Source: Minisyncoccia bacterium (GTDB lineage Bacteria > Patescibacteriota > Minisyncoccia > Phycocordibacterales > GWA1-40-21). Taken from it: a DNA stretch of 56,956 nt. The DNA is taken from positions 1 to 56,956 of the forward strand of contig JBAQFI010000014.1 in assembly GCA_049287185.1 (NCBI GenBank), written 5' to 3'. Each line of letters opens with the position of its first letter. The stretch's first letter is position 1. The notes under the pieces are model-generated. The model saw nothing but the letters and a program-made list of their open reading frames with translations, did no database searches and had not been told where the DNA came from. A program made the position numbers and the translations under genes. Shown here in pieces: positions 7,169 through 56,200 of this stretch.

Positions 7169-7175
7169 TTTCCTC

Positions 7176-7270: not shown

Positions 7271-7304
7271 AAACAAAAAACCACCCGAGGATGATTTTAA
7301 TTTT

Positions 7305-7505
7305 TTAATACTGACTTTCTTTTAATTCTACAACATTACCATAACGATCTAGAACTTTAGTAGTAATAATTTGATTTTTTGCTGAAGGTAAAAGGTTCAC
7401 AGTATTTTTTGGGACACTCGCTGAGGTTGGAGTGGCAAAATCAAAAAAACGGGAGACAAAAAACATAATTACTACTGCTAACAAAATCCATTTTAAATCA
7501 TCCAT
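7305..7505 (-). CDS. small N-terminally anchored hypothetical protein
   Basis: 66 aa with a single N-terminal TM helix (WILLAVVIMFFVSRFF). Confidence 0.45.
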   Translation of the reverse strand: MDDLKWILLAVVIMFFVSRFFDFATPTSASVPKNTVNLLPSAKNQIITTKVLDRYGNVVELKESQY

Positions 7506-11829: not shown

Positions 11830-11985
11830 CACTTGGACCGCTTCGCTTATCTTCCCAGCGCTCGGTTTCGCCGTCGCTTCACCGAGCTGGGACGCGGTCT
11901 CGAATTTCTCGCTGGTACTCGAAATATACTCGACCGTTCGATTCCTAACTTTTGATATACTCATATCAAAAGTTAAGTGGGGGGA
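11830..11985 (-). repeat. tRNA-3'-end-linked structured element, type C body, matched to tRNA-Arg(GCG)
   Basis: On the minus strand: TCCCCCCACTT, a hairpin (AACTTTTGATAT/ATATCAAAAGTT) and AGGAATCGAAC. Joined together these are the reverse complement of the last roughly 22 nt of the tRNA at 20407-20478. The 47 nt core matches 4764-4810 with one mismatch. The element ends GGTCCAAGTG, echoing tRNA ...TTCCAAGTG. Confidence 0.8.
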
Positions 11986-12037
11986 CATTATAAAAATCGG
12001 CTTTTCTTAAAAGAAAGCCGATTTTTATAATGTCCCC
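11981..12037. terminator. 24 bp perfect palindrome (bidirectional terminator-like) containing a displaced tRNA 3'-end remnant
   Basis: GGGGACATTATAAAAATCGGCTTT ... AAAGCCGATTTTTATAATGTCCCC. The arm at 12031-12040 reads GTGGGGACA on the minus strand, resembling the tRNA-Arg(GCG) 3' end GTGGGGGGACA. Confidence 0.7.
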
Positions 12038-12180
12038 ACAACAAGAAATTATTATAACCATTTTGAGTGATAGAAATTATATAGAAAGCTTATATGAGAA
12101 AGTCAGATATATAAGAGAGATGAGTGTGAATTAAATTACTATCTCCACTTAGTATATTAAATTTCTTAAAAACATAAAAA

Positions 12181-14316
12181 TTACCATTTTATTTCGAGTT
12201 CCTTAAATGCATTTTTGATTAATAATCTCCCTTCTCTCTGATAGAAACTATATTTTATTGGGCCAGTGGCTCTTTTGGTCGATTTTGTAAAAGCGTGGGA
12301 CAATTCACTTTCAAGTCTTTTTTCGTGAATACTTTTAGTCATTTTGAATATTAACGGATATTTTCTTTCAAATCGGCTATTTTTACTAGATACTGATCCA
12401 CCAATATTTCCTAAAGTGTAATTACCGATTGTCACATCATGCTTAAATAATGATTTCAGTAACAGATCATTAAAGACGTCCATGTAATTTACCCATGCAG
12501 TAATATCAATACCTGCTTTTCTACAACAATTAAAAGCTTTCTTTCGAGCCTCTTCATAATCTGTCCCGAAGATACTTCGCCAATTAATATTTTTAATTTC
12601 ATTGTTCATCCATTTGTTAAAATAGATTTCTATACTACACCAGTTAGCACCAAAGGGTAGCCTTTCTATTAAACCAGACTCTTTGAGAATATTTGCCGCC
12701 CGCAAATTAATATTTTTTTTAATACCCATAATTGGTAACTCACGTTTAACCATGATTACAGCTGCAACGCAAGCGACATCGTTTGACTTATCTCTTATTT
12801 TTTCATTTATGATTTCAGTGAGTCTTTTTGGGCTCAAATTATCATTATCTAGAGCTTGAACTAAAGAAGATCTTACATACCATTCTTTCGGCCTGAGTGC
12901 AAAATCCATTTGCTTTGAAGTGTTGATTAGGTTTTCTCTTATAATGGGTTTCCCAATTGCTATGTGTAAAGCAACTTCAGACTCTAATACTCTTGGATGC
13001 CACTCTTTTTTTAATAAACGATTAAGGCGATTTTTTTGGTCATGTCTAATTCTTCCATCAAGTGTTTCAAAAAGTCCTGCCGTTATGGTTGTATAGACGG
13101 GTTGGCTGTTTATTTCCTTAATAATTAGATTCACGATTGTTTTCGGAAGAAACTTGTATCGCTGAAAATATTGAAAAACTGCTTCAAAATTAGCTGGGTA
13201 TTCCATAAAAATACGCCAGATACGGTAATTTATTTGAGAAGAGGGAATGATTTGACTAAGCGTGAATTTAAAAAGTGTCTGATTGGTTATTTTATATTCT
13301 TTTGTTAATGAAATTATTTTCTTTCGTAGTTTAGTTTGGTTGGTCACCCTCCATTCAGTGGGTGGATCTGTAGGTCTACTTATAGATTTAAGCTCATTCT
13401 CAATATCTTTCACTTTATGTATTTTGATTTTATTACTTTGTGGAAAAAGACCAATATTTTTACTTAGCCTATCAAAACGGACTAACATTTTACGTAATTC
13501 TTTTTCTGATTTTGCAAATAATCTTATATCATCAACATAACGCATATAGCGTATGTGTGGTCGGCTACCATAACCGACATCAAAATATTTTAATACGACT
13601 TCTGATAGAATTCCTGAACTTAATGGACCTTGAGGAATACCGTGATTATGATAGATTTGAGTTGATTCGTTTCCAGTCCACTTACTTAAACAGTTCGTTA
13701 GTAAATCAATGAATTCATTATCGCAATTTATTTCCTTTAGAAAATGACGTAATACTTTATGATCAATACTGTCGTAACAGGCGGTTAAATCAAAGCTAGC
13801 TGTATACACTAGTCCTTTTTTAAAAGATTCTCTCGCCATCTCATTAAACTGCTGATATCCATCAGACCATTTTCTATAAAACCAAACGCTACTTTTACCA
13901 GCATAAAGATTACCAAAATTTTTCACATAATAGTTAGATTTGATTTTTGGAAAAAGATGTTCGGCAATAACATTAGTCATTGCCTGATAAATAATCTGAT
14001 CTTCAATAGTAAGTAGTGTGTATGGACGAAGAACCCCCGATGGTTTAGGTATAAAAATTTTACATCCATGGCTTGGCTCGTAAATATTTTTCTGGATTTG
14101 TTCTGATAAATCCTTAATGATGTAATCTTCTATTAAAAGATAATTAGAGTAAAGATCACGAAAATACCCTTTATATCTCCTATCAGGGTTACTTTTAATC
14201 CAACGCCAAGCACGTTGGATATTTCTTCTATCAAGAACCTCGTTAATTGTTGAAGTATAATTTGGCATATATAATTGATAATATCCATTTAATACACCAT
14301 AATAAAAGGATATCAA
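12181..14316 (-). CDS. reverse transcriptase with a C-terminal extension of about 400 aa (Abi/UG-like, not a group II intron or retron type)
   Basis: RT motifs are readable: KPSGVLRPYT (1-2), FDLTACYDSIDH (3), GIPQGPLSSGILSEV (4), YMRYVDDIRLF (5) and GLFPQSNKIKI (6-7). The ORF start at 14316 is TTG, with an alternative ATG at 14268. Confidence 0.85.
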   Translation of the reverse strand: MISFYYGVLNGYYQLYMPNYTSTINEVLDRRNIQRAWRWIKSNPDRRYKGYFRDLYSNYLLIEDYIIKDLSEQIQKNIYEPSHGCKIFIPKPSGVLRPYTLLTIEDQIIYQAMTNVIAEHLFPKIKSNYYVKNFGNLYAGKSSVWFYRKWSDGYQQFNEMARESFKKGLVYTASFDLTACYDSIDHKVLRHFLKEINCDNEFIDLLTNCLSKWTGNESTQIYHNHGIPQGPLSSGILSEVVLKYFDVGYGSRPHIRYMRYVDDIRLFAKSEKELRKMLVRFDRLSKNIGLFPQSNKIKIHKVKDIENELKSISRPTDPPTEWRVTNQTKLRKKIISLTKEYKITNQTLFKFTLSQIIPSSQINYRIWRIFMEYPANFEAVFQYFQRYKFLPKTIVNLIIKEINSQPVYTTITAGLFETLDGRIRHDQKNRLNRLLKKEWHPRVLESEVALHIAIGKPIIRENLINTSKQMDFALRPKEWYVRSSLVQALDNDNLSPKRLTEIINEKIRDKSNDVACVAAVIMVKRELPIMGIKKNINLRAANILKESGLIERLPFGANWCSIEIYFNKWMNNEIKNINWRSIFGTDYEEARKKAFNCCRKAGIDITAWVNYMDVFNDLLLKSLFKHDVTIGNYTLGNIGGSVSSKNSRFERKYPLIFKMTKSIHEKRLESELSHAFTKSTKRATGPIKYSFYQREGRLLIKNAFKELEIKW

Positions 14317-18870: not shown

Positions 18871-20511
18871 ATGAATCAAAATAAAGTTGCAGTTATATAT
18901 TGTAGAGTTTCCACGGACGAACAAGCCAAGGAAGGTTTGTCTATTGAATCGCAGGAACTTACTTGTCGAAGAAAAGCTGAAGAGGAGGGATATTCCGTTA
19001 TTGAAGTAATAAAAGATGAAGGTAAGAGTGGAAAAAATATTAATCGAGAGGGAATGAAAAATATTTTAAGGTTAGTGAATGAGAAAAAAATAAATGCTAT
19101 CTATTTGGTAAATACCGACAGGCTTTCCAGAAATGTAGCCGACCATATATATCTTACTGACCTCTTTAGAAAGAATAAAGTGTTGTTAAGATCAATAAAT
19201 CAACCAACATTAGATAGTTCAGCCACTTCCATAACTATGGATTTAATGATGGCAACAATGAACCAGTTTCAAAGATTGAATACAGCAGAAAAAGTTAAAT
19301 CGACAATGCATGAAAAAGCTAAAGCTGGTTATTACCCCAGTAAGGCTCCTGTCGGCTACAAGAATGTCCAAGACTTAAATAAGTCGGAAAGATTTGCTAG
19401 AAAAACAATTATTATTGATGAAAAAGCAGCGGTCTTTGTTAGGGAAATTTTTAGACTGTATGCCACTGGCGAACACAATGCGGTTGAAGTCAGCGATATT
19501 GTCTACGATAAAGGATTTAGGAGTAGAGGTGGAAAGAAAGTATCGGACTCCAAAATCTATATGATGTTAAAAAATCGATTCTATATTGGAGAGATAAACT
19601 GGGGAGAAATACATATTCCTAAAGCTAAGCATGAGCCCTTAATTGAAAGAGTGGTATTTGATCAAGTTCAAAGTGTTTTGAATTCCCACAATAAGCATTC
19701 TTGTCGGCGGCGAAAGTACAAATGGTTGCTTAGTGGATTCCTTAGGTGCCATAAACATAATTCTAGATATACGGCTGAATGGCATTTAAACAAAAAGATT
19801 GCTTACTATCACTGTACGGTTAATGGTTGCGGTAAATTCTCCGAACAGGTAAAACTTGAAAATGCTATCGCTGAAAAGTTTAAGGACCTTGAGTTCAGCC
19901 CAGATTTTATTGAATTAGTTATTAGTAAGGCAAAAAACATCTTCTATGAACGAAGAGAGGTGTATGAAAGCAAGAGACAGGGTTTGATTAATCAAAAAAG
20001 TGCCTTCGAAGCCAAATTAAAGGTAGCGGAAACCAAATTACTATCAGGCACCTTAAAAGACGAGGACTTCAAAAGGATCCGAGAGGAAATTAAAAAAGAA
20101 ATTGACCTAATTGATAATAGGATAGTTGAAGTTCAGAAGGGTAAGGAGATAAATGTTGATATGACAAGGGAAATAATTGGGCTAACTAAGAATATTTTTG
20201 AAACATATCAAAAGGCTTTACCTGAGCTAAAAAGGTTATTTCTGGGTTTCTTTTGGGAAAGGTTTGAAGTATCTGAAGGTATTATAATAAATTCCATTCC
20301 CTCTATATTATTTAGCCAATTAATCAAACTTGAGAAGGCATATCAAAAAAGCCAAAATACTAATAAACCCAGTGATTTTGCTAATGTTATAAGTTCTACT
20401 GACTTGTCCCCCCACTTGGAATCGAACCAAGATTTTGAGTTCCGCAAACTCATGTCCTATCCATTGAACGATGAGGAGATGAACGGGAAGACTATAGCAC
20501 ACTTTTTTTAA
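18871..20511 (+). CDS. large serine recombinase (integrase)
   Basis: Resolvase catalytic motif VIYCRVSTDEQ, recombinase domain, Cys-rich zinc ribbon (CHKHN...YYHCTVNGC), coiled-coil region. The last roughly 35 codons run antisense through the tRNA at 20407-20478. Confidence 0.9.
   Translation: MNQNKVAVIYCRVSTDEQAKEGLSIESQELTCRRKAEEEGYSVIEVIKDEGKSGKNINREGMKNILRLVNEKKINAIYLVNTDRLSRNVADHIYLTDLFRKNKVLLRSINQPTLDSSATSITMDLMMATMNQFQRLNTAEKVKSTMHEKAKAGYYPSKAPVGYKNVQDLNKSERFARKTIIIDEKAAVFVREIFRLYATGEHNAVEVSDIVYDKGFRSRGGKKVSDSKIYMMLKNRFYIGEINWGEIHIPKAKHEPLIERVVFDQVQSVLNSHNKHSCRRRKYKWLLSGFLRCHKHNSRYTAEWHLNKKIAYYHCTVNGCGKFSEQVKLENAIAEKFKDLEFSPDFIELVISKAKNIFYERREVYESKRQGLINQKSAFEAKLKVAETKLLSGTLKDEDFKRIREEIKKEIDLIDNRIVEVQKGKEINVDMTREIIGLTKNIFETYQKALPELKRLFLGFFWERFEVSEGIIINSIPSILFSQLIKLEKAYQKSQNTNKPSDFANVISSTDLSPHLESNQDFEFRKLMSYPLNDEEMNGKTIAHFF
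20407..20478 (-). tRNA. tRNA-Arg (anticodon GCG), atypical C1-G72 acceptor
   Basis: Manual cloverleaf: CTCCTCA acceptor paired with TGGGGGG (two G-U pairs), D arm GTTC/GGAC, anticodon stem TGAGT/ACTCA with loop TTGCGGA, T arm CTTGGTTCGATTCCAAG, discriminator A. No CCA is encoded. Confidence 0.65.
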
Positions 20512-21140: not shown

Positions 21141-21324
21141 AACGATAAAATAACGCGAAAGCGTTATTTTTGTTGTGGAGAAGGAGTAATGTGTTTGAAC
21201 ACATTACGTCGAGATTCGAAAGGAATTTTGATATTTTGTTAGTAAACAAAATCAAAATTCCGGGGTCGAGGAAAAAATATGTGACGACATATTTTTGAGG
21301 TGACCGAACAGCCTTCTCCGCAAC
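21141..21324 (+). repeat. tRNA-3'-end-linked structured element (Ser copy, type A-like)
   Basis: The order is terminator hairpin, TGTGGAGAAGG (complement of the acceptor 3' strand), hairpin AGTAATGTGT/ACACATTACGT, then CGAGATTCGAA (21210-21220), the exact complement of T-loop plus stem. The body carries CGGGGTCGAG and GTGACC. A 14 nt perfect direct repeat GCCTTCTCCGCAAC lies at 21130-21143 and 21311-21324. Confidence 0.85.
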
Positions 21325-21325
21325 A

Positions 21326-21357
21326 ATACCCAACAACTGTAAGTTGCTGGGTATTTT
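21326..21357 (+). terminator. terminator hairpin after the Ser element
   Basis: ACCCAACA/TGCTGGGT stem followed by ATTTT. Confidence 0.45.
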
Positions 21358-27027: not shown

Positions 27028-27275
27028 CAAAAAATACGAAGTAGTTTTTTTGTGGGCGGTAAGTAAGGTCTGGAGAGACCTTACGTGAGGATTCGAAGTC
27101 CGATTGAGTATTTTTTCTAGCTGACTAGCGAAGAAAAAATCCAGAGGGGTTGAATTGCGAATACTTAGAGTAATTCAAAGACGGAGGCTGACGAGCCGAG
27201 TCGGGGTCGCGTAAATTTTCAATAGAAAATTATATGTGACCTGACCGTGTAACGGTCGAAATTCCTCTACCTACG
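27028..27275 (+). repeat. tRNA-3'-end-linked structured element (Val copy, chimeric type B/A body)
   Basis: TGTGGGCGGTA (27051-27061) is the exact complement of TACCGCCCACA. The hairpin AGTAAGGTCT/AGACCTTACGT follows. GAGGATTCGAA (27087-27097) is the exact complement of TTCGAATCCTC. The body has AGACGGAGG, GAGTCGGGGTCGCG and GTGACC, and a degenerate terminal copy AATTCCTCTACCTACG follows. Confidence 0.85.
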
Positions 27276-28651: not shown

Positions 28652-29314
28652 ATGGGAAAGAGGGGAACAAAGCCAAAGAATAAAGTAAAAATTAAGTGGT
28701 CCGGTAATTTTGCTTATGCAATGGGACTGATTGCTACTGATGGTAATTTATCTCCAGATGGACGCCATATTAATTTTACTTCTAAGGATATCGAACAGAT
28801 AGCAAATTTTATGAAGGCACTAGAAATAGAATGCAATATTGGAAAAAAATCAAATGGCCACGTTAAACATAAAAAATACTTTGTAATTCAGTTTGGAGAC
28901 GTTAATTTCTATTCGTTTCTCAATTCGATTGGACTAAAACCTAATAAGTCTAAAACTATCGGTAGTATTAAACTGCCAAGCAAATATTTTTTTGATTTCT
29001 TGAGGGGATGCTTTGATGGGGATGGTTGTTTCTATTCATATTGGGATAAACGCTGGAAATCTAGTTTTATGTTTTACACTGAATTCGTATCGGCCAGTCA
29101 AAAACACATTTTATGGCTACAAGATGAAATATTTAGAAGGATAAATATTAAGGGACATATAACAAAGGGCGGAAATAATTCTTGTTATCAATTAAAATAT
29201 GCCAAATCTGATTCTCTAAAATTATTAAAAAAAATTTATTATAAAGGTGATTTAATCTGTCTAGATAGGAAGAAGTTGAAAATTAGAAAAATATTAGGTA
29301 ATATTGCCAAGTAG
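28652..29314 (+). CDS. LAGLIDADG-family homing endonuclease (two-motif, free-standing)
   Basis: Two LAGLIDADG-like motifs, YAMGLIATDGNL and FLRGCFDGDGCF, about 100 aa apart. Confidence 0.8.
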   Translation: MGKRGTKPKNKVKIKWSGNFAYAMGLIATDGNLSPDGRHINFTSKDIEQIANFMKALEIECNIGKKSNGHVKHKKYFVIQFGDVNFYSFLNSIGLKPNKSKTIGSIKLPSKYFFDFLRGCFDGDGCFYSYWDKRWKSSFMFYTEFVSASQKHILWLQDEIFRRINIKGHITKGGNNSCYQLKYAKSDSLKLLKKIYYKGDLICLDRKKLKIRKILGNIAK

Positions 29315-30126: not shown

Positions 30127-30660
30127 ATGTATACTCGAAAAGGTGATGATGGTAAAACCACTTTATTTCATTGTGATCAGCGCTTATCAAAAAGCTCTAT
30201 TATTGCTGAGGCTCTAGGCACGCTTGATGAACTAAATTCTTTTTTAGGAATTTGTCGTACCAAAGCCAGTGGTGAAGAAAATAACGATTTAGCAAAACAA
30301 ATTTTACTGGTGCAAAATGATTTATTTATTATTCAGGCTAGTTTGGCTGGTGCTGATAAACATATTAATCTAGAGAGGGTAGAGTGGTTAGAAAATATAA
30401 TTGGAGGAATTGAAAAAGAAATTCCACCCATTAAAAATTTTATTATTCCAGGTAGTGATGAGGTAACCGCACATATAGATTATGCTCGAACACTAGCTCG
30501 CAAAGCTGAAAGGAGAGCGGTCGCAGTTTTCGATGAAGGAAAAGTTCAAGTGGAAAAAAATACTTTAATTTATTTAAATCGTTTATCCTCATTTTTGTTT
30601 GCTTTAGGTAGACAAAAGGCCTATAAGTCTGGTATAAATGAGGAGCATCCAAATTACTAG
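30127..30660 (+). CDS. PduO-type ATP:cob(I)alamin adenosyltransferase family protein
   Basis: N-terminal YTRKGDDGKTTL motif, size 177 aa. Confidence 0.8.
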   Translation: MYTRKGDDGKTTLFHCDQRLSKSSIIAEALGTLDELNSFLGICRTKASGEENNDLAKQILLVQNDLFIIQASLAGADKHINLERVEWLENIIGGIEKEIPPIKNFIIPGSDEVTAHIDYARTLARKAERRAVAVFDEGKVQVEKNTLIYLNRLSSFLFALGRQKAYKSGINEEHPNY

Positions 30661-30692
30661 GATGCAATATCTGTTAATCTAGCAGAACTAAT

Positions 30693-30764
30693 GGTGCCTA
30701 TAGTTTAGTGGTAAAACTCCGGTTTGTGGAACCGGTATCGAGAGTTCGATTCTCTCTAGGCACC
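30693..30764 (+). tRNA. tRNA-His (anticodon GUG) with encoded G-1
   Basis: G-1 at 30693 pairs with C73. Anticodon stem-loop CCGGT TTGTGGA ACCGG, T arm GAGAGTTCGATTCTCTC. No CCA is encoded. Confidence 0.9.
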
Positions 30765-30963
30765 CAAAAATAACGAGCTAAACACAATAGTGTTTAGCGA
30801 TTATATTTTTGTAGTACCTAGAGAGAATCGAAAGACGGAGGCCGCGAAGCCAGTCGAACGTAGTGAGACTGTGGCCGAGTCGGGGTCGAGAGTACTTAGG
30901 CTTTTAGAAATTCATATTTTTAAAAGACTTAGTAACTCGTGACCGATTCTCTCTAGGCACCCA
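30765..30963 (+). repeat. tRNA-3'-end-linked structured element (His copy 1, type A body, unsplit guide)
   Basis: Terminator hairpin first. GTACCTAGAGAGAATCGAA (30814-30832) is the complement of TTCGATTCTCTCTAGGCAC with one mismatch. The body has AGACGGAGG, GAGTCGGGGTCGAG and GTGACC. The element ends in a perfect 20 nt copy of the tRNA 3' end (30944-30963). Confidence 0.85.
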
Positions 30964-31197
30964 TGAAAAAAGCGGCGTAAGCCGTTTTTGTCATGGGTGC
31001 CTAAGCAAACAAAAGTATTTGTTTGCGTGGAGAATCGAAAGACGGAGCCAATGATTTTCAGTAGAAAATCATGTGAGTCGGGGTCGCGACTTTTTCTGAA
31101 CGACGGTGAAGAAAAAAGCCGTGACCGATTCTCTCGTTTTCCTAATAAAATTTAATTGGGACTGCTCCTGTAATGGTCGATTCTCTCTAGGCACCCA
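30964..31197 (+). repeat. tRNA-3'-end-linked structured element (His copy 2 plus a short third stub)
   Basis: The order is terminator hairpin, TGGGTGCCTA (30994-31003), hairpin AGCAAACAAA/TTTGTTTGCGT, GGAGAATCGAA. The body has AGACGGAG, GAGTCGGGGTCGCG and GTGACCGATTCTCTCG. A stub of about 55 nt follows, ending in a third perfect 20 nt copy (31178-31197). Confidence 0.85.
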
Positions 31198-31260
31198 CAT
31201 TTCAAAAACTTGTAATCCGAAATCAATCCCTTCTCTTATATTTTTTGCTATAATATTTCT

Positions 31261-32181
31261 ATGCTAGCTTTATTATCTTCAATTTTTGGAGCAGTCGGTT
31301 CATTAGCCCTATTTATTTTTAGTATATTATCCTTTGACAGACTAATCCGAAAACATACCAGTAGTAAAATAAAGGAATTATTAACATCATTAACTTCAAA
31401 TCCTGTTAAGGGTCTAATTTTTGGTTTTATTACTTCAGCTATAATACAATCCAGCTCGGCTCTAACTACCTTACTTGCGTCGCTAGCTGATGCTGGAATG
31501 ATTTCTATTTATAACAGTCTGGGTGTTATTTTCGGAGCCAACATTGGTACTACTATCACTGCTCAATTAATAGCCTTCAATTTTGCTAGCATCTCACCTT
31601 TAATAATTATTATTGGTGTTATATTTTTACTTTGGGGTGGACGATTTCGTAATTATGGAAAGCCAATAATTTATTTTGGTCTGTTATTTTTTTCAATTTA
31701 TTTAATCTCCTATTTTGTTTCCAAAGTAGACAGTGTTTTCTTTATAGATTACATTGCTTTAATTTCTAATTTATACATTGCTATTTTTGTTGGTATTATT
31801 GCTTCAACTCTATCTCAATCAAGCAGTGTCGTAACCGGAATAGTGCTCGTTATGGCGGGCATGGGGCATTTCGATTTGATGCAGTCTGTCGGTTTGATTC
31901 TGGGAGCAAACATTGGTACTACCACAACAGTTTTAATTGCTTCCTTGGTAATGGGTAAAGAAGCAAAAAAAGTTGCTGTTGCTCAATTTCTCTTTAACTT
32001 TTTAGGCGTTATTATTGTTTTACCTATTATTAATATTTTTTATTATGTTGTCGATTGGCTTGACGGTGACATCGTCCATCAGGTCGCAAATATTCATTTA
32101 CTATTTAATGTTTTTTGTGCCGCGGTCTTTATAATTGCGATTAAACCTTTTGCCTGGTTAGTCAATAGAATTGTAAAATAA
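31261..32181 (+). CDS. Na/Pi cotransporter family protein (short, no PhoU domain)
   Basis: Duplicated QSSSA(L/V)T...GANIGTT motifs in a polytopic membrane protein. Confidence 0.8.
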   Translation: MLALLSSIFGAVGSLALFIFSILSFDRLIRKHTSSKIKELLTSLTSNPVKGLIFGFITSAIIQSSSALTTLLASLADAGMISIYNSLGVIFGANIGTTITAQLIAFNFASISPLIIIIGVIFLLWGGRFRNYGKPIIYFGLLFFSIYLISYFVSKVDSVFFIDYIALISNLYIAIFVGIIASTLSQSSSVVTGIVLVMAGMGHFDLMQSVGLILGANIGTTTTVLIASLVMGKEAKKVAVAQFLFNFLGVIIVLPIINIFYYVVDWLDGDIVHQVANIHLLFNVFCAAVFIIAIKPFAWLVNRIVK

Positions 32182-43928: not shown

Positions 43929-46900
43929 ATGATAAAAGTTTCTAAAATCTACAAAAAATTCAGTACTTTCACTAGATTTCTAGCCTTTTCGTTTCTCCTA
44001 GGCTTGGTAGTTTCTGTCTCTGTTTTTTCAATTATTCCCATTTTCGCTTCTGCCCTCTCTAACCCTTACAATCCTGGAGAAACTCTGGATCCAGATTGTC
44101 TACCTGGAGACTTAAATTGTACAGTAGCCACCCTTTGGTCTAACTCAGGTTCAGATGTTGTCTTTGGTCAGACTGGTAATATTGGTATCGGCACTTCAAG
44201 CCCAGCTTACAAACTCACTACTATCGGTGATAGTTATTTTGCCGGTAATCTAATAGCTACTGGTACTTTGTCATCTTTAAACTTTACTGGTACCTCAACA
44301 GGAACAAATACTGGTGATCAAGACTTGAGCGGTCTTTTGCCATATGCTTATGCTTCTTCCACCTACCTTTCCATTTCCAATGCTTCCTCCACCTATTTAC
44401 CACTCTCGGCTTCTACTTCTTTGAACTATATTTCTGTTGAATCTGATCCTGTTTTTATGGCGGCTTCTTCTTCTTTCTACCGCGCTTCCAATCCCGCTGG
44501 TTACATTTCTTCTTTCTCCGAATCTGATCCACTCTTTATGGCTGCCTCAACTTCTCTCCCATATCTTTCTTCTTTTGTGGAGTCTGATCCCTTATGGAAC
44601 GCGGCTTCTTCTTCTTACCTCACCACCGCTTCCGCTTCTTCCACTTACTATCGCTCATCAAATCCCGCTGGTTACATTTCTTCTTTCTCCGAACTCGATC
44701 CTGTCTTTACCGCTAGCTCCTGGTCCACCACTACCAACAACTCTACTAACTGGAACACTGCTTACAGCACTATCGCCGCTTCTTCTACCTACTGGGACAC
44801 AGCTTACTCTTGGAGTAATCATGCTAACGCTGGTTATTTAACTTCTGCTCTAGCGAGCTCAACCTATCTTTCTACTTCTACAGCTTCTTCAGCTTATGCC
44901 AAATTAATTTCCCCATTATTTACTACTCCATCACTTGGCGTGGCTTCAGCAACTAGTATAAATAATTTAGTTTTAAGTACAGGTGCCGGAAATAAATATG
45001 GAAGTATAGCTCTCGGCGCATCAAATCTTGGTGTTATTACCACCGGAAGTTCCAATATTGGTTTAGGTGGAGATGTTCTCACATCAGTTACTTCCGGTTC
45101 ATACAATATAGGTATTGGATCATCAAATTTACCTGTTCTTACAACTGGTTCGAATAATATAGCTCTAGGAACATTTTCCGGCAGAGTCAATGTTTCCGGT
45201 GGTGACAATATCTCTATCGGCCGTAACAGTTTATATAATTTATATACCGGTTCATATAATGTTGCTGTTGGACAGTCAGCTATGTATGGAAACACTAGTA
45301 GTGGGTTTAACACTGCCGTAGGTGCTCAAACTTTAGTTGGTGCGGAAATAGGAACTGGTAACGTTGCCCTGGGATATGGTGCTGGTTATGACGAGACAGG
45401 CTCGAACAATTTTTATGTAGATAACCAGGTAAGAGGGAGTCTGGGATTAGGTAAGGCTGGTTCATTACTTTATGGAACATTCAATGCCACTCCAGCCAAC
45501 CAAACCCTGAAAGCCAACGCTACTTTTTCCGCTTTAAACTTCACTGGTACCTCCACGGGGAATAATACCGGCGATGTTACACTCGCCGGCGCCACCACTG
45601 TAAACGGTCTCACCATTTCCAACCAAGCTCTTACTCTTGGTCTTGCCGGTGCCTCCGCTACCGGTACACTTTCGGCGACCGACTGGAATACTTTTAATAA
45701 TAAATTAAATTCCACTTCTGCAGATTTAACTTATCTCTCTATTGCTTCTGCCCAAACCAATTATCTTTCTACATCTTCCGCTGCTTCAACTTATGCTCCA
45801 CTTTCAAATGTCTTAGCTTTAAACAATGTCACTTCTTTTACACCATCCGCCAATTATCATCCAGCCACAAAAAAATATGTTGATGATTTGTTTGCTACCT
45901 TAGGCAGTTCTGGCACCAGTTCTTCTGGTGGATTATCTTTAGAAACTATCACCGCTTCTGGTACAGCTGCTGTTGGAAAACTTTATACCAATGCCAGTAG
46001 TTCTGTTGATTATACAATGACCTTACCGGCTGGAAGTGCCGATGGAAGTACGATTGGATTTATGAATATTGTTGGAGTTAATACTAAAGCGACCGGAGGA
46101 ACAATTACCTCTGAAGGCAATTATATAATTCACACCTTTACGGCGGGTGGCACATTCACAGCTCTTGAAGATATATCTGGTGCCGAAGTATTAATTGTAG
46201 CTGGAGGTGGTGGTGGTGGTGGAGGAAGTTTGTCTATGGATTCCGGTGGCGGTGGTGGTGCGGGTGGTCTTATTTATAGTGCATCATCCACAATAACCTC
46301 AGGTGCAAAAACGGTTGTTATTGGTGGCGGTGGAAACGGAGGAACTGGCCGATCAGGAACAGCTTCTAATGGCGAAAATTCTACTTTTAACGGACTAAGT
46401 GCAATTGGTGGTGGTGGTGGTGGAAATTGGGCAAATAATGGAGCTGCTGGTGGTTCTGGTGGTGGTTCATCCGGTGCTTCTGGTTCTTCTTATTCTGGTG
46501 GTGCCGGAACATCTGGTCAAGGAAATGCTGGTGGTAATAATACTAGCTCACCTAATTATGGTGGACCGGGTGGCGGTGGCGCTGGGGAAGCTGGACATAA
46601 TGGTACAACTATAGCTAATGGAAATGGTGGTGATGGTTTGGCATACTCAATTTCTGGAACTTCTACTTATTATGCTGGTGGTGGAGGACACGGAGCTGGT
46701 TATTTAACCCCAAGTAGTGGTGGTCTTGGAGGAGGTGGTCTTGGGGGAGGCGAAACTGGTAGTGCCGGTACTGCTAACACTGGTGGTGGTGGAGGAGGTG
46801 GAAGTTCAGCTTCCGGAGCTTCAACTGGCGGTGCCGGAGGAAGTGGAATTGTGATTGTAAGATATTTGTCAGGAGGTAATAATAGTAGAATTACTGTCAC

Positions 46901-49900
46901 CCCCGCTTCTGGTGAACAAATTTATGGATATGCTGTTGACGAATCTGTCACTCTCTCCACCGAAGGCTCCAAACTCTCCCTCATAAAAAACAACGGCAAA
47001 TGGTACGACGCCGCCTTTGGTATTGGTGGCGGTGGAACTCTTTCCATTCCATCACTGACTGGCAATGTTGGAAAATATTTAACTATTGATGCTAGTAGTA
47101 CTTTATCTTGGGGTACCGTTTCGGGAACTTCCGGAACTTCTAGTGGTTTAACTTTAACAACGATTACTGCATCAGGCACAGCTGCGGTGGGGAATTTGTA
47201 TACTAACGCCAGTAGTACTGTTGATTACACCATGACCTTACCGGCTGGAAGTGCCGATGGTAGTACGATTGCTTTTTTAAACATAGTCGGCTCAGGTGAA
47301 TGTGCTGGAGGAACTAAAACCTATGATGGAAACTATGTTATACACACTTTTAATTCTTCGGGAACATTAAGTTGTCTGAATACTATAACCGCCGAGGTTC
47401 TAGTTGTTGGTGGTGGTGGAGCCAGCGGAACCCATCAGAGTGGTGACGGCGGAGCTAGCGGTGGTGGTGGAGGAGGTATACAGTATGATGCATCATTTTC
47501 TATAGCTAGTGATACTTACACAGTTACAGTTGGTAATGGTGGTATTGTAAATCCATCAAGGGGTCCAGGAGGTAGTGGAAGCAGCTCATCATTTTCGACT
47601 TTTACATCTGGCGGCGGTGGAGGCGGAAGTGTTTATAATAACAATGCTGGTGGGGGAACGTCCGGTTCACCTCAGTCTAATGCCGGGGGGCCTATCTCAG
47701 GTGGTGATTGGGGCGGTGGCGGAGGAGGTGCTGGAGGCGTTGGTCTAGTTGGAAATAGCTATAGTTCAGATACTCGTGGTGGACCAGGATTATCATATTC
47801 TATAAGCGGTACATCAACTACCTACGCGAAAGGTGGAACTACATCAGCTACAGCTAATAGGCCAGGAACTGCAAACACAGGAAACGGCGGTGAATCTATG
47901 TATGGTAATCATCCTGGCCAAGCTGGTGCAACGGGCGTAGTAATTGTCAAATACTTAAGAGAAAATTCTAGCGTAATTACCGTTACTCCAGCAGCTAATG
48001 AAGCAATTTACCCATATGATAATGGTGAATCTGTCAGTATTGGTTCTCAGGGTGGAAAACTCTCTCTCATAAAAAACAATGGCAAATGGTACGACGCCGC
48101 CTTCGGTATTGGTGGAGGTTCCACTGCTTCAACTACTATCACCTCGGCCACCACTTTCGCTATCGGTACCACTACATCACTCGCTACTCTCACTGTCTCT
48201 GGTAATACCTATATATCAGACGTTCTCACCGTCGCTTCTACTACAGGTGTTTCTAGTATTCTCGGAAAACTCTCCATTGGTACTTCAACTTCACTAGCTA
48301 CTCTTACTGTCGCAGGTGATCTATCTCTGTCCGGTAAAATCTTTGATACCAATTATTCCGCTGGTACGGCTGGCATGATTTTACAATCCACTGGTACTAG
48401 TACTCGTTGGGTCTCCACCTCATCACTTGGCATCTCTGGCGGTTCTAGTGTTCCGGAGCTTGTCACTATTACTTCTGGTACTACCACCATTGACTCAACA
48501 TACAATGGGAAATTGATTACGAATGCTGGAGCGACGGAAGATATCATATTAGAATTACCAAGTCGAGCGAGTGTTGGAAATAATTTTGAAATTGGAATAA
48601 TAAATGAGGCTGGAGTTACAATTGATGGTGGTACTGCCACCACCAGTGGAGCCGACACAATTCATACTTTTACTTCTGGCGGAACTTTTACAACTACAGT
48701 ACCATTAACAGCGGAAGTTTTAGTGGTTGGCGGTGGAGGTGCAACAGCTAGAGGTCAGTGTGGAGACGGAGTGCAAGGTGGTGGTGGTGGAGGAGGTGTT
48801 CAATATTCATCTGATTTTTCTATACCAGCTGGAACATATACTGTAACTGTTGGATCTGGTGGACCGAATCGAGATGATAGAGGTCAAGGACTTCCTGGCT
48901 CAGCGTCTACTTTTAGTACCTTAACTGCCGGCGGTGGCCTTGGTGGAAATCTTTGGAATGTTGGACCTGGTGGAAATTCTGGAACACCACAGTCTAACGC
49001 CGGTGCTTGGTTAGGGGGTGATTATTCTGGTGGTGGCGGTGGAGCTGGTGGAGCCGCCTCCGGAGTTACTGGGGGAATAGGTTTATCTTATTCAACCGGT
49101 GGAGCAACTTCAACATATGCAGTAGGAGGTACTATAGGTGGTCCTAATACTAATGGGGAACCAAATACTGGTAACGGTGGCGGTGGAGCTAGTACCTGTA
49201 CCAATCAAGCTTCCGGTGGTTCTGGAATTGTAATTATTAGACATCCAACCTATAGTACTGGTATTACTTTGGTTCCAGCTTCTGGAGATCAATTACCCGG
49301 AACTGCAGTAGAAGATACTCCAATAAAATCAACTTCAAGAAATAATTATATTAAATTGCGCACCACTGATACTGGTTGGATTGCCGAGTCAGCTTATTCA
49401 ACCGCCTCTCAATGGGCAGAATTAACATACAACCCCTCCTCCCGCTCAGTCAAAGAAAACTTTGCTGAGCTCGACAAACAAGATATTTTAAACAAAATTG
49501 CTAAATTAGACATGACAGAGTGGAACTACATTGCTCAAGACGATGGTATCAAACACATTGGTCCAATTGCCGAAGACTTCTACACTCTCTTCGGTCTCGG
49601 AGGCACAGATAAAGCGATCTCCACTATTGATCCAGCTGGTATTGCTCTCGTTGGTATCCAAGCTATGAGCAAAAACCTTCAATATATATTTGGTACAACC
49701 TCTATTGAAACTCTAGCCAACTCCACTACCACTTTAGAAACCTACACTGTCACCGATTTATTTACCGGTATGGTGAAGTCGGCACTTCAGAAACTTTCTT
49801 CAACCTTTATTGATACCATATTGTCAGTGAAGGGAATGGTGATTGGTTCCGCTTCTCAACCAAGTGGTCTCACTATTTATGACCAAACCACCAAGGAACC

Positions 49901-50399
49901 TTACTGTCTGAAAATGAATAATGGTGCAATGGTCACCATCCCAGGTATCTGTTCCGATTCCAGTCAAGGACAGTCCTTAACGGATGAAGAAACCACTGAC
50001 CCTGGTCCAGGCCCGGCCTCGACCGAGGAAGTCACCATTTCAACCGAGACTTCAACCACGACCGAAGAAACGGCTACCTCGACTGAGGATACTACCACCT
50101 CAACCGAAACCGCCACCACCACTGAACCAGTAGCCGAAGACACCGCTACCACCACTCCACCAACTCCTGAATCAGAAACTACCCCAGCCACTTCCGAAAC
50201 CCCACCAGTCGAACCAGAACCAATAGTAGAACCAACGCCCGAGCCGACCCCGACCGAATCTGTAGTGGAACCTGCTCTCGAACCGGTCGTAGAAGAACCA
50301 GCTGTTGAAGAACCTCCAGTCGAAACACCTCCCGCTGAGGAAACTCCTGCTCCCGAACCTACACCAGAACCACCGCCAGCCGAGACTCCAGTAATTTAA
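43929..50399 (+). CDS. giant (2156 aa) secreted or anchored surface protein
   Basis: N-terminal hydrophobic anchor. ESDP(V/L)F and SSTYL repeats, and YadA-head-like NIALG/NVAVG repeats. Three modules end GIVIVRY, GVVIVKY and GIVIIRH. An S74-like segment reads SSRSVKENF...HIGPIAEDF. The C-terminal tail is rich in P, T and E. Confidence 0.85.
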   Translation: MIKVSKIYKKFSTFTRFLAFSFLLGLVVSVSVFSIIPIFASALSNPYNPGETLDPDCLPGDLNCTVATLWSNSGSDVVFGQTGNIGIGTSSPAYKLTTIGDSYFAGNLIATGTLSSLNFTGTSTGTNTGDQDLSGLLPYAYASSTYLSISNASSTYLPLSASTSLNYISVESDPVFMAASSSFYRASNPAGYISSFSESDPLFMAASTSLPYLSSFVESDPLWNAASSSYLTTASASSTYYRSSNPAGYISSFSELDPVFTASSWSTTTNNSTNWNTAYSTIAASSTYWDTAYSWSNHANAGYLTSALASSTYLSTSTASSAYAKLISPLFTTPSLGVASATSINNLVLSTGAGNKYGSIALGASNLGVITTGSSNIGLGGDVLTSVTSGSYNIGIGSSNLPVLTTGSNNIALGTFSGRVNVSGGDNISIGRNSLYNLYTGSYNVAVGQSAMYGNTSSGFNTAVGAQTLVGAEIGTGNVALGYGAGYDETGSNNFYVDNQVRGSLGLGKAGSLLYGTFNATPANQTLKANATFSALNFTGTSTGNNTGDVTLAGATTVNGLTISNQALTLGLAGASATGTLSATDWNTFNNKLNSTSADLTYLSIASAQTNYLSTSSAASTYAPLSNVLALNNVTSFTPSANYHPATKKYVDDLFATLGSSGTSSSGGLSLETITASGTAAVGKLYTNASSSVDYTMTLPAGSADGSTIGFMNIVGVNTKATGGTITSEGNYIIHTFTAGGTFTALEDISGAEVLIVAGGGGGGGGSLSMDSGGGGGAGGLIYSASSTITSGAKTVVIGGGGNGGTGRSGTASNGENSTFNGLSAIGGGGGGNWANNGAAGGSGGGSSGASGSSYSGGAGTSGQGNAGGNNTSSPNYGGPGGGGAGEAGHNGTTIANGNGGDGLAYSISGTSTYYAGGGGHGAGYLTPSSGGLGGGGLGGGETGSAGTANTGGGGGGGSSASGASTGGAGGSGIVIVRYLSGGNNSRITVTPASGEQIYGYAVDESVTLSTEGSKLSLIKNNGKWYDAAFGIGGGGTLSIPSLTGNVGKYLTIDASSTLSWGTVSGTSGTSSGLTLTTITASGTAAVGNLYTNASSTVDYTMTLPAGSADGSTIAFLNIVGSGECAGGTKTYDGNYVIHTFNSSGTLSCLNTITAEVLVVGGGGASGTHQSGDGGASGGGGGGIQYDASFSIASDTYTVTVGNGGIVNPSRGPGGSGSSSSFSTFTSGGGGGGSVYNNNAGGGTSGSPQSNAGGPISGGDWGGGGGGAGGVGLVGNSYSSDTRGGPGLSYSISGTSTTYAKGGTTSATANRPGTANTGNGGESMYGNHPGQAGATGVVIVKYLRENSSVITVTPAANEAIYPYDNGESVSIGSQGGKLSLIKNNGKWYDAAFGIGGGSTASTTITSATTFAIGTTTSLATLTVSGNTYISDVLTVASTTGVSSILGKLSIGTSTSLATLTVAGDLSLSGKIFDTNYSAGTAGMILQSTGTSTRWVSTSSLGISGGSSVPELVTITSGTTTIDSTYNGKLITNAGATEDIILELPSRASVGNNFEIGIINEAGVTIDGGTATTSGADTIHTFTSGGTFTTTVPLTAEVLVVGGGGATARGQCGDGVQGGGGGGGVQYSSDFSIPAGTYTVTVGSGGPNRDDRGQGLPGSASTFSTLTAGGGLGGNLWNVGPGGNSGTPQSNAGAWLGGDYSGGGGGAGGAASGVTGGIGLSYSTGGATSTYAVGGTIGGPNTNGEPNTGNGGGGASTCTNQASGGSGIVIIRHPTYSTGITLVPASGDQLPGTAVEDTPIKSTSRNNYIKLRTTDTGWIAESAYSTASQWAELTYNPSSRSVKENFAELDKQDILNKIAKLDMTEWNYIAQDDGIKHIGPIAEDFYTLFGLGGTDKAISTIDPAGIALVGIQAMSKNLQYIFGTTSIETLANSTTTLETYTVTDLFTGMVKSALQKLSSTFIDTILSVKGMVIGSASQPSGLTIYDQTTKEPYCLKMNNGAMVTIPGICSDSSQGQSLTDEETTDPGPGPASTEEVTISTETSTTTEETATSTEDTTTSTETATTTEPVAEDTATTTPPTPESETTPATSETPPVEPEPIVEPTPEPTPTESVVEPALEPVVEEPAVEEPPVETPPAEETPAPEPTPEPPPAETPVI

Positions 50400-53174: not shown

Positions 53175-53290
53175 TCTTTGTTTCAACGTAGGCCCTTCGT
53201 ATATCTTGCCTTGGCAAGCTCTATATTGAAGGGTCTTTTTTATTTCCATTTCTAATGACTTTTTTTGGTTTTTTTGCTATCTTTAGACGT

Positions 53291-56200
53291 ATGAGCGCCG
53301 AAATAGAAAAGAAAGATATCAAGAGTCAGATTGCGGAAAAGGAAGAAAAAATTCTGGAATTTTGGAATAAAGAGAAAATTTTTCAGCAAACTTTAGATAA
53401 AAAATCTCCTAAAGGCGAGTATGTTTTTTACGATGGTCCACCTTTTGCCACTGGCACACCACATTATGGTCATCTTCTCGCTGGAACTATCAAAGATGTT
53501 ATTCCACGTTATAAAACTATGTGCGGTTTTCACGTTCGTCGTCAATGGGGCTGGGATACACACGGATTGCCAGTCGAAAACTTGGTAGAAAAGGAATTTG
53601 GTTTAAAAAACAAAAAAGATATTGAAGATTTTGGAGTAAAGAAATTTAATGAGGCCGCGCGCGCCAGTGTTTTGCGTTATGCCGAAGATTGGAAAAAAGT
53701 CGTGCCAAGAATGGGACGTTTTATTGATATGGAAAATGATTACCGCACCATGAACTCTTCTTACATGGAAACAGTAATGTGGATTTTCAAGCAATTACAC
53801 AGCAAGGGTTTAGTTTATGAAGGTTTTAAATCTATGCACCTCTGTCCGCACTGTGGTACTACACTATCAAACTTTGAAGTGGCCCAAGGCTATAAAGATA
53901 TAACCGATATTTCTGCGACCGCCAAGTTTGAATTGATTGATGAACCTGGGACTTTCTTCCTCGCTTGGACAACTACTCCTTGGACCTTACCTGGTAACGT
54001 TGCTCTCGCCGTAAATCCCGATATTGATTACGTAAAAATTAAAGTCGGAGAAGTTTTTTATATTTTAGCCGAAAAACGCTTGTCGGTTATTAAAGATACA
54101 TACGAAATTGTAAATAAAGTTCAAGGTAGTGAACTGATTGGCAAAAGCTATAAACCACTTTTTGATTATTACACAAAAGCTCAACCGCCAATTGAAAATA
54201 TCGGTAATGGTTACAAAGTTTACCCAGCCGAATTTGTCACCACTGAAGATGGAACGGGTATCGTGCACATCGCCCCAGCTTTTGGTGAGGATGATTTGAA
54301 ACTTGGACAAAAATTTAAATTGCCGTTTATTCAGCATGTCAGCTTTGATGGCAAGATGAAGCCAGAAGTAACGGATTTTGCAGGGCTAATGGTCAAACCA
54401 GCTACCAAAGAGGGAGAAAAGGACTCGCAACAAAAAACTGATATTGAAGTGATTAAATATTTAGCTGGTAAAGGTACTCTTTTTGCTAAAGAAAAATTTA
54501 TTCACTCCTATCCGCATTGTTGGCGTTGTGAAACTCCACTATTAAATTACGCGACCTCATCTTGGTTTGTAGAAGTGACGAAAATTAAAGACCAGCTAGT
54601 AAAAATAAATAGTAAAATCGGTTGGGTACCACCAGAAATAGGTGATGGACGTTTCGGTAAGTGGTTAGAAGGGGCTAGGGACTGGGCGATTTCTCGCTCA
54701 CGTTATTGGGGAGCACCGTTACCAATTTGGCGCTGTGCCGATTGTGAAAAAACGGAAGTTTTTGGCAGTATTAAAGAAATTAAAGAAAAGATTGGTGCAA
54801 AAAACAAATATTTTGTAGCTCGTCATGGCCAAGCTGAGAATAATGTTTTGGGTATTTTAAGTTGTGATCCGAAAAGACCACATCACTTGACTGAACTGGG
54901 CAAAAAACAAGTTAAGAATAACGCTGATTCTCTAAAGAAAAAAGGAGTCAAAATTGACCTCATTATTTATTCTCCATTTGTTCGTACAGAAGAAACCGCT
55001 GAAATTTTTGCTAAAGAACTTGATGTAAATAAAGAAAGCATGATTGAAGATAATCGCTTGCATGAGGTTAATGCTGGAATCTTGGATATGCATTCCGATG
55101 CCGAATATCAGGCCTTTTTTGGTACCAGAGAGGAAAAGTTTTATAAAGTGCCAGAAGGTGGCGAGAGTCATACAGACGTAAAAAATCGCATGACCTCGGT
55201 TCTCTATGATTTACACGAGAAATATTCTGGTAAAAATATTTTGCTTGTGACTCACAATACACCAGCTTGGCTTATGTTTGCCGGAGCGGAAGGTGATACA
55301 CCAGAAAAAGCGATTGAACTTCGTCATGAAGCTCATGACTTTATCAAAAACACGGAAATAAAAGATTTGGAATTTGTACCATTACCACATAATGATAATT
55401 ATGAATTGGATTTTCATCGCCCATATATCGATGAAGTAAATATTCCTTGTCAGTGTGGTGGCACAATGAAGCGAGTTAAAGAAGTTTTTGATTGTTGGTT
55501 TGAATCCGGATCTATGCCTTATGCCCAATATCATTATCCATTTGAAAATTTGGATAAGTTTAATCCAGAAAAGGGAATTGGTTTCCCGGCTGAGTTCATT
55601 GGTGAAGGGTTGGACCAGACTCGAGGTTGGTTTTATTCCATGCTCATTATTGCAGTTGGACTTTTTGAACAAACATCATACAAAAATGTTATCGTTAACG
55701 GAATTATTTTAGGTGAAGATGGACAAAAGATGTCCAAACGTTTGAAAAATTATCCTGACCCGATGTATGTCGTTTCCAAATATGGTGCCGATGCTTTGCG
55801 TTACTCATTATTGGCTAGCCCAGTGGTGAAAGCCGAGGACATGATTTTTTCTGAAAAGGGAGTAGACGAAGTAGTGAAGAAATTAATCATGAGACTAAAT
55901 AATGTTTACACTTTTTACGAAACCTATAAATCAGAGGAAGAAAAAATTGCTAATCCAAAATCCAGGAATGTTTTAGACGTCTGGATTGCCGTTCGTCTAA
56001 AAGAATTAGCAGTAACAGTTTCTTCAGCGCTCGATCGCTATGAATTAGATAAAGCGTCTCGACCTTTTGCCGATTTTATTGATGATCTTTCTACCTGGTA
56101 CTTGCGCCGTTCCCGTGACCGTTTCAAGTCGGATGATTTGAAGGATAAAAAACTAGCCGTAGAAACTAGCCGTTGGGTTCTGTTTGAAACCGCCAAGGTT

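Follow-up and report, generated by a model that had tools for sequence, protein, structure and literature searches.

Tandem, structured non-coding units bounded by perfect copies of the tRNA-His 3' end in a Patescibacteria genome

How does the 3' end of one tRNA gene come to stand three times in a row, unchanged, with different DNA between the copies? The question is raised by the tRNA-His locus (positions 30,693 to 31,197) of contig JBAQFI010000014.1 from a Minisyncoccia bacterium (GenBank assembly GCA_049287185.1). We analyzed 56,956 nt of this contig and refer to that whole stretch as the window. An exact scan bore out, at all three positions, what an earlier note on this DNA had reported: the 20-nt string CGATTCTCTCTAGGCACCCA occurs in three perfect direct copies on the plus strand, at 30747-30766, 30944-30963 and 31178-31197. 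There was no further match in the window with up to 3 mismatches, and none in 100 dinucleotide-preserving shuffles. Copy 1 is the 3' part of the tRNA-His gene itself, from C56 in the T-loop to 2 nt beyond the discriminator. The explanation that we favor, holding it with about as much confidence as doubt, is that the array is a stack of non-coding, structured elements from a family that inserts site-specifically at tRNA 3' ends in Patescibacteria (candidate phyla radiation, CPR).

The earlier note described three nested insertions. We found that the units are arranged in tandem and are not three equal insertions: there are two units with one kind of core (type A) and the remnant of a module of another kind (type B). 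The features of the locus, in order, are:

30693-30765, plus strand: tRNA-His (GUG) gene; ARAGORN 30694-30765, Rfam tRNA 30694-30764 with 68.1 bits against a gathering score of 29
30747-30766, plus strand: repeat copy 1, tRNA nt 56 to the discriminator plus CA; exact match
30767-30816, plus strand: trailer of unit 1, with a terminator-like hairpin (30777-30798, found by scan) and a T-rich run
30817-30832, plus strand: guide arm of unit 1, unsplit; 16-nt perfect complement of tRNA nt 54-69
30831-30943, plus strand: type-A core 1, a three-way junction; covariance model R1 95.8 bits, fold and covariation
30944-30963, plus strand: repeat copy 2; 3' strand of helix P1 of core 1 and start of unit 2
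30964-30993, plus strand: trailer of unit 2, with hairpin GCGGC-GTAA-GCCGT and a T run; read by eye
30994-31039, plus strand: split guide of unit 2; TGGGTGCCTA at 30994-31003, an inserted conserved hairpin at 31004-31027, TGGAGAATCGAA at 31028-31039
31038-31125, plus strand: type-A core 2, of another subfamily; covariance model R1 77.6 bits
31126-31136, plus strand: truncated repeat CGATTCTCTC(G), directly after the GTGAC of unit 2
31137-31177, plus strand: stub of 41 nt; a small hairpin and a decayed type-B 3' module
31178-31197, plus strand: repeat copy 3; next comes the promoter region of the following gene

The tRNA-His gene encodes G-1 at 30693 and does not encode CCA. Units 1 and 2 share a layout: an A-rich trailer, a terminator-like hairpin with a T run, a guide arm, a core, and then the next repeat. 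Each core reads AAAGACGGAG, a hairpin (hp1), GAGTCGGGGTCG, a second hairpin (hp2) and GTGAC, and the next repeat begins directly after GTGAC. The intervals are 197 nt long for unit 1 and 234 nt for unit 2, and neither contains an open reading frame (ORF). Each unit has its own terminator hairpin, as had been proposed; that of unit 1 was found by scan and that of unit 2, absent from the terminator scan list, was seen by eye. The complement in unit 1 is indeed unsplit, but it is perfect over 16 nt, and reaches the 19 nt given before only with 2 mismatches. The complement in unit 2 is split by a hairpin just as claimed, with the acceptor part in TGGGTGCCTA, the T-stem/T-loop part in TGGAGAATCGAA, and the split at the acceptor/T-stem boundary. 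The end of unit 2 is truncated as described (GTGAC, CGATTCTCTC and G at 31121-31136). The stub behind it, put at about 55 nt before, measured 41 nt. Its end, GGGACTG-CTCC-TGTAA-TGGT (31158-31177), adjoins repeat 3 and is a weakened copy of the type-B 3' module that is also present at tRNA-Arg (26462) and tRNA-Leu (29550) of the window. In ten other loci this module adjoins a tRNA copy at exactly C56. Repeat copy 3 is probably the displaced original 3' segment of the tRNA.

The two units belong to one conserved family and to different subfamilies of it. Core 1 has a long hp2 with a bulged A and its final GTGAC at 30939-30943, and core 2 has a simple AU-rich hp1, an hp2 with the apex CGACGG, and its final GTGAC at 31121-31125. 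That is, the units differ in hp1, in hp2 and in having an unsplit or a split guide, and each of these types recurs in other genomes and at other tRNAs. The trailer type of unit 1 is likewise present at tRNA-His elements of other genomes (L106, L142 and L152; L numbers are labels of comparison loci). We conclude from the subfamily differences that neither unit is a recent tandem duplicate of the other, in agreement with the earlier note.

The core and its arms fold as a three-way junction. Helix P1 forms between the guide and the downstream copy of the tRNA end. The junction strands are AAA (J12), GGG (J23) and zero nucleotides between P3 and P1. P2 (GAC/GUC) continues into hp1 through a bulged G and tandem G·A pairs, and P3 (GGUCG/UGAC) continues into hp2, with an invariant bulged A. 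Over 41 sequences, 85.7% of cells were paired, compared with ~40% when the partners were slid by 1-3 columns. The covariation score was 0.49 for the fold and 0.10-0.16 for slid partners, and none of 500 shuffles scored as high. Covariance model R1 found five copies in the window (95.8, 77.6, 57.6, 50.9 and 16.3 bits) and 142 copies in 100 loci. Because 38 of the model copies fall outside the search pattern, they remove ascertainment bias. Among these 38, the middle pair of P2 takes all four Watson-Crick forms, the first pair of hp1 alternates between G-C and A-U, and P3 switches to GGCC/GGCC-type and GCCC/GGGC pairings. In the core helices read on the tRNA strand there were 231 G·U juxtapositions and 24 A·C, an excess which argues that the fold is selected on the tRNA-sense strand. 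Compared with a tRNA-like structure or a tmRNA-type acceptor mimic, the helix of guide and copy reproduces the acceptor and T stems and has hairpins inserted at the 7/49 junction, but it is longer by 5 bp, has another sequence in place of the T-loop, and encodes no CCA.

No Rfam 15 family matched the units. A scan of the window at gathering thresholds returned only tRNAs and a LOOT RNA (RF03000; 16135-16253, minus strand, 74.9 bits). The folds of LOOT and of the elements are unrelated, and identity of the two was ruled out. A scan of 30600-31300 at E<=10 gave only sub-threshold noise of the miRNA/snoRNA type, driven by hairpins. A search for a promoter of the core's own gave a single weak consensus match, fewer than in shuffles.

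We compared the pairing of the guide with the two tRNA copies that flank it. The guide arm is the complement of the 3' segment of the tRNA and also of the trailer behind the upstream copy. In 37 of 39 cases the downstream copy is a weaker partner for it than the upstream copy with its trailer (for unit 2, -37.7 compared with -41.4 kcal/mol). Based on this preference we infer that the self-contained unit consists of nt 56 to the 3' end, the trailer, the hairpin, the guide and the core through GTGAC. So defined, the unit falls between positions 55 and 56 of the tRNA gene. The repeat is usually longer than the tRNA end by 1-5 trailer bases of the gene itself. The duplication is 19-25 nt or longer, and its distal end is variable. 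Origin from a mature tRNA, as a retro-copy ending in CCA, was rejected: CCA is present in 5 of 26 downstream copies and in 4 of 26 genes, and the trailer bases of the gene are shared. Thus, the repeat was copied from the gene and not from the mature tRNA. A T-loop intron was rejected as well, since in-silico splicing of 14 units with no tRNA nearby gave no interrupted tRNA while a positive control worked. An intact tRNA precedes every tRNA-linked unit.

The family extends well beyond the window. We scanned one genome per species with the exact type-A core pattern, and the counts that follow are of the matches listed. The core is present in at least 120 genome loci, nearly all of them in Patescibacteria; the host lineages include Saccharibacteria, Nomura-, Paceibacterota, Kaiser- and Yonath-bacteria and others. 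A few matches in high-GC DNA are probably due to chance. Outside Patescibacteria, matches to the core pattern were present in L002, L049 (Elusimicrobia) and a Patiriisocius metagenome-assembled genome (L017). L017 has four covariance-model matches and may be a misbinned CPR contig.

The arms of the elements are specific to the local tRNA. A tRNA gene lies on the same strand within 400 nt upstream of 73 of the 124 core matches, typically 45-85 nt away, and these tRNAs cover 18 specificities. In 39 clear cases of the T-loop type, the sequence of the local tRNA from nt 56 onward starts at offset 0 after GTGAC. As far as the tRNA 3' end, 18 of the 39 downstream copies are identical to the tRNA, and 24 reach at least 90% identity. 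At positions 61-72, which are tRNA-specific, the copy agrees with its own tRNA at a median of 12 of 12 positions, compared with 5 of 12 for other tRNAs (p=3e-17). The guide duplex is likewise stronger with the own tRNA (-13.1 kcal/mol) than with others (-8.9 kcal/mol; p=6e-9). In a second junction class (the Lys unit of the window, L039, L104 and unit 1 of L148) the copy starts at the acceptor end, at nt 72-74. The family also includes decayed copies, truncated copies and orphans without a tRNA.

Presence of the elements varies between related loci. In most of the 67 metagenome contigs that share this 3' end of tRNA-His, no module follows the gene, and some of these module-free genes match that of the window at 53 of the 54 nt upstream of the repeat. 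In six tRNA-His loci (L122, L142, L145, L168, L170 and L186) the T-loop is GAGAGTCCGATTC, with C in place of the normally invariant U55, and the gene is otherwise identical to that of the window. In about 19 contigs tRNA-His adjoins a gene for cobalamin adenosyltransferase (CobAT), as it does in the window, and this conserved neighbor indicates that the loci are orthologous. The states of the CobAT-tRNA-His locus were:

Empty: L133, L173, L163, L126, L168, L131, L140 and L162
Remnants: L124 and L167
One element: L047, L171 and L157
Two elements: L152 and L148
Two elements and a remnant: the window

The earlier note had called for variation in unit number, and here it is found, between species and genera. 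The empty, remnant, one-unit and two-unit states are interspersed on a tree of the flanking protein. The nearest relatives of the window, L157 and L148, hold different elements, and their sister pair, L133 and L173, is empty. In L133 and L173, as in L154 and L158, cores are present elsewhere on the contig.

Two further comparisons bear on movement. The related, syntenic loci L013 and L105 differ by a precise 92-nt indel that corresponds to one non-identical unit, bounded by CCTGCCGAT[G/A]AATCGAAAGACTTTTC. In addition, an interior of ~150 nt is ~94% identical between L003, where it lies at tRNA-Lys, and L013/L105, where it lies at tRNA-Arg. The outer flanks of these loci are unrelated, and the flanking repeats of each element match the local tRNA (22 of 22 positions in L003). 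Within arrays, the core proximal to the tRNA outscored the distal one in 12 of 16 adjacent pairs (a hand tally; binomial ~0.04, one-sided), and the window follows the trend, with 95.8 bits, then 77.6 bits, then a remnant. A better preserved proximal unit is expected if new insertions land next to the tRNA. The earlier note had proposed that each insertion creates a new target; the gradient suggests that only the genuine tRNA copy is used.

Modules of the same design lie behind six of the seven tRNAs of the window: His, Val, Lys, Ser, Arg-UCU and Leu. After each of the six come a terminator hairpin, a complement of the tRNA's own 3' end, at least one conserved module, and a copy of the own 3' end. 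These downstream copies are decayed to varying degrees, and in many cases a conserved hairpin divides the complement precisely where acceptor and T-stem meet. Type-A cores are present twice at His and once each at Val and Lys, with a reduced form at Ser. The type-B core, a long hairpin followed by RUACUG and a small hairpin with a UGUAA loop, is present at Arg, Leu and Val. A type-C core forms the second Lys unit and an orphan at ~11,840-12,050 (minus strand). The elements other than those at His are:

4700-5004, minus strand: tRNA-Lys elements; a type-A core with acceptor-end junction (P2 variant GCC/GGC), 50.9 bits, then a type-C unit
21141-21355, plus strand: tRNA-Ser; a reduced type-A element, 16.3 bits
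26331-26560, plus strand: tRNA-Arg(UCU); a type-B element and a decayed type-A remnant
27029-27275, plus strand: tRNA-Val element; split guide, type-B long hairpin, type-A core, UGUAA hairpin and decayed tRNA-Val 3' copy, 57.6 bits
29421-29590, plus strand: tRNA-Leu(GAG); a type-B element

The only tRNA of the window without an element is tRNA-Arg(GCG) (20406-20478, minus strand). It is overlapped by an ORF for a large serine recombinase (18871-20511, plus strand; Resolvase and Recombinase domains, CcrB-like), which may belong to an integrated island that uses that tRNA. Just upstream of tRNA-Leu lies a free-standing LAGLIDADG-like ORF of 220 aa (28652-29314, plus strand). The window also encodes a class I aminoacyl-tRNA synthetase of 1186 aa (53255-56815, plus strand) with a histidine-phosphatase (His_Phos_1) domain inserted between its catalytic and anticodon-binding domains, and a protein of 2156 aa (43929-50399, plus strand) with Gly_rich_2 repeats and a Peptidase_S74 (intramolecular chaperone) domain that resembles a phage tail-fibre or surface-fibre protein.

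The insertion that we favor would work as follows. Small (~200 nt), protein-less elements would colonize the 3' ends of tRNA genes by inserting at the T-loop, between nt 55 and 56. Since the unit supplies a 3' segment and a terminator, the tRNA would stay intact and terminated, and the original 3' segment would be pushed downstream. Repeated insertion next to the tRNA would produce tandem, non-identical units with perfect repeats between them, the youngest nearest the tRNA, and unequal recombination could add to such arrays. At tRNA-His, the type-B element that is now the 3' stub would have arrived first, then type-A unit 2, and then type-A unit 1. The covarying arms suggest that the target may be chosen by base pairing of the guide with the tRNA gene or its transcript. 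Putative catalysts are a host or other trans-acting protein, or the RNA itself. The claim of repeated site-specific insertion is thus supported by variation among orthologs, by the element shared between tRNA-Lys and tRNA-Arg and by the L013/L105 indel, but not by any excised form.

Several results weigh against this explanation. No circular or excised junction was found, nor were presence/absence alleles in the same population; the comparisons are between species or genera. In L013 and L105 the tRNA and its type-A element are 100% identical, with flanks only 60-90% identical, and this identity, together with the strong conservation of the core across the CPR, could equally reflect a function for the host. 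The near-identity of the Lys and Arg elements could have arisen by gene conversion between pre-existing copies and not by transposition. Local tandem duplication does occur in the family: the two units of L011 are ~95% identical, and L152 and L106 provide further cases. In L157, the T-arm parts of the arms match another tRNA-His T-stem, CAACTCCCGAT, as in L106, and not that of the resident tRNA, with which the guide arm agrees in its acceptor part. Arms that match another version of the T-stem imply long vertical persistence; the mismatch either records an earlier T-stem or points to horizontal transfer. Exact sibling contigs were looked for and not found: the flanking proteins had no database record, and the 39-nt 3' half of the tRNA-His had no exact metagenome match.

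A mobilizing enzyme was not found either. The units encode nothing, and the genes that flank the array are for cobalamin adenosyltransferase and a Na/Pi cotransporter. The type-A core was present in none of the viral contigs, and a link to phage was rejected. No tnpB, iscB or IS110 gene adjoins the array. A reverse transcriptase (RT) of the UG19 group (711 aa; 12181-14316, minus strand; PADLOC E=2e-165) is encoded directly upstream of the orphan type-C element. The orphan (11840-12050) is on the same strand, ~130 nt downstream of the RT, and has a long hairpin and a split guide (CCACTTAAC/TTAGGAATCGAA), with no tRNA nearby. We found no RT homolog in 187 element or tRNA loci, and the closest homologs of the UG19 RT (54-68% identity) have ordinary genes in that position and no element motifs. 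The RT is thus not supported as a partner. A possible autonomous, coding version at L029 was also rejected. There, IS3-family transposase genes lie between tRNA-Ser and a type-A element (1270-3793), and the 2.7-kb gap represents IS3 transposases that landed inside.

Of the alternatives, the one that survives best is that the units are host-functional RNAs, cis-acting or co-transcribed, that serve the tRNA gene. They might act, for example, in transcription termination or insulation, in the handling of read-through, or as a mimic of the acceptor and T arms that attracts a tRNA-binding factor such as RNase P or RNase Z, with arrays produced by duplication and unequal crossing-over between the 20-nt repeats. 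We regard this as possible, if somewhat doubtful. Conservation of the junction nucleotides among CPR lineages is extreme, selection on the structure acts on the transcribed strand, and the guide hairpins are inserted in tRNA-like fashion, exactly at the acceptor/T-stem boundary. Modules are present at six of seven tRNAs in the window, tRNA plus element can be 100% identical between species with diverged flanks (L013/L105), and a read-through transcript is predicted to be able to fold into a tRNA with the downstream copy as its 3' strand. In contrast, most orthologous tRNA-His genes are module-free, even those identical at 53 of 54 nt and even where other sites of the genome have modules. Decay or truncation affects many copies, some are orphans without a tRNA, and the number of units differs between relatives. 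Furthermore, the terminator between tRNA and core should make co-transcription inefficient.

A second alternative is that one ancestral unit of the tRNA-His array was duplicated locally in tandem and the copies then diverged, while gene conversion or selection kept the repeats identical to the tRNA. Near-identical tandem units exist elsewhere (~95% in L011), the two units of L152 are paralogous, and in L106, L037 and L035 the repeat extends through the terminator. (The two-unit array of L011 copies the 3' end of a partly masked tRNA that lies ~6.6 kb away (reverse strand, 380 and 6950-7310); an integration may have separated them.) However, the two units at tRNA-His have different trailers, terminators, guide architectures and hp1 and hp2 types, each is closer to elements of other genomes than to the other, and the module before the third repeat is of a different type. 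Module typing suggests that cores 1 and 2 fall in separate clades together with elements of other tRNAs and genomes. In decayed duplicated arrays such as that of L152 the repeats are degraded, whereas all three are perfect here. We therefore consider this origin of the tRNA-His array unlikely.

T-loop-class integrase sites are classically recognized by direct repeats that start in the T-loop and extend slightly beyond the 3' end of the tRNA. The repeats here match this pattern, the window's large serine recombinase overlaps a tRNA gene, and the L011 array is 6.6 kb from its tRNA, but it is very improbable that the repeats are attL/attR scars of integrase islands or phages whose interiors were almost wholly deleted (cis-mobilizable relics), because no integrase lies within or adjoins the units, instead of random remnants the interiors hold a guide arm and an RNA fold that is conserved and covaries, one interior is found at different tRNAs with both repeats local (which an att copy borne by the element cannot give), and the core is absent from viral contigs.

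Within site-specific insertion by a non-coding element, a more particular mechanism is conceivable, although we think it a long shot: RNA-guided self-targeting. Through a reprogrammable guide of ~20 nt, the three-way-junction RNA would pair with a tRNA gene or transcript across the bond between nt 55 and 56 (2 nt upstream and ~18 nt downstream) and direct its own copy there, alone, as a small ribozyme whose strand transfer resembles reverse splicing, or together with a host enzyme. If true, such a minimal and programmable "homing RNA" would have no relation to group I/II introns, CRISPR, OMEGA or bridge RNAs.

If the elements are mobile, they are a new class of non-coding genetic element whose choice of target is written in a replaceable arm of ~20 nt. 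They would then bear on how selfish elements survive in the smallest and most gene-dense bacterial genomes, behind tRNAs and repairing what they disrupt, and could point to a new programmable chemistry of insertion. If they are host RNAs, they reveal an unknown, CPR-specific layer of tRNA gene expression or processing. Either way, much "empty" DNA behind CPR tRNA genes is explained, a covariance model is available to annotate these regions, and the arms are natural fossils of past tRNA T-stem sequences.

How do the elements compare with known systems? No description of the family was found in full-text searches of the literature (subscription journals being outside the coverage) or in the paper that defined LOOT. 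The elements are similar in several respects to tRNA integrative elements that use the T-loop through a tyrosine integrase, and to the tandem, CTX-type IMEX (integrative mobile elements exploiting Xer) at dif: they occupy a target site, are bounded by direct repeats, regenerate the gene with element sequence, and would form arrays by successive integration. The folded strand of CTX-type elements, in which two inverted copies of the site mimic the target duplex, is comparable to guide plus copy. In contrast to integrative elements, the units are ~200 nt long with no recombinase gene inside, they have a conserved RNA-type core, and their arms change with the local tRNA, so that there is no fixed attachment (att) copy (L003 compared with L013).

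Group I and II introns share with the elements a structured RNA without obligatory coding, a segment complementary to both sides of the insertion point (the internal guide or exon-binding sequence of introns; 2 nt upstream and ~18 nt downstream in the elements), and a patchy, homing-like distribution. However, the core of the elements is only 60-110 nt, and the gene product is uninterrupted: an intact tRNA and a terminator precede the unit, and no split tRNA was found. Neither Intron_gpI nor Intron_gpII of Rfam matched at gathering thresholds or at E<=10. Self-cleaving ribozymes (hammerhead, twister, twister-sister, pistol, hatchet, hepatitis delta virus-like and hairpin) gave no match in 30600-31300 even at E<=10, and on direct reading the junction strands AAA, GGG and none do not fit the hammerhead core.

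Miniature inverted-repeat transposable elements (MITEs), short interspersed nuclear elements (SINEs) and tRNA-targeting retroelements (Ty3, TRE5-A) are likewise small, non-coding and multi-copy, with decayed copies and a tRNA safe harbor in a compact genome, and the long target duplication with a variable end resembles target-primed insertion. They differ in that the inverted arms here are copies of the target, varying with the adjacent tRNA, and not fixed transposase sites; the duplication is not of short, fixed length. There is no poly-A or internal promoter, the repeat comes from the gene and not the mature tRNA, and no partner transposase or RT was identified for the elements. Conserved adjacency to an RT, which defines retrons and defense-associated RTs, was not seen. 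The ωRNAs of IS200/605 elements (TnpB/IscB) and the bridge RNA of IS110 resemble the units in having a conserved scaffold next to a 16-20-nt segment that matches their own insertion site. Here, by contrast, there is no adjacent nuclease or recombinase gene, Rfam has no matching family, a hairpin splits many of the guides, and both complement and copy are present.

The elements thus work most like integrative elements and IMEX arrays on the one hand and guide-bearing introns on the other, while failing the defining tests of each. A small RNA junction that is bracketed by a complement and a copy of the adjacent tRNA 3' end, and stacked behind tRNA genes, is without counterpart among the known kinds compared.

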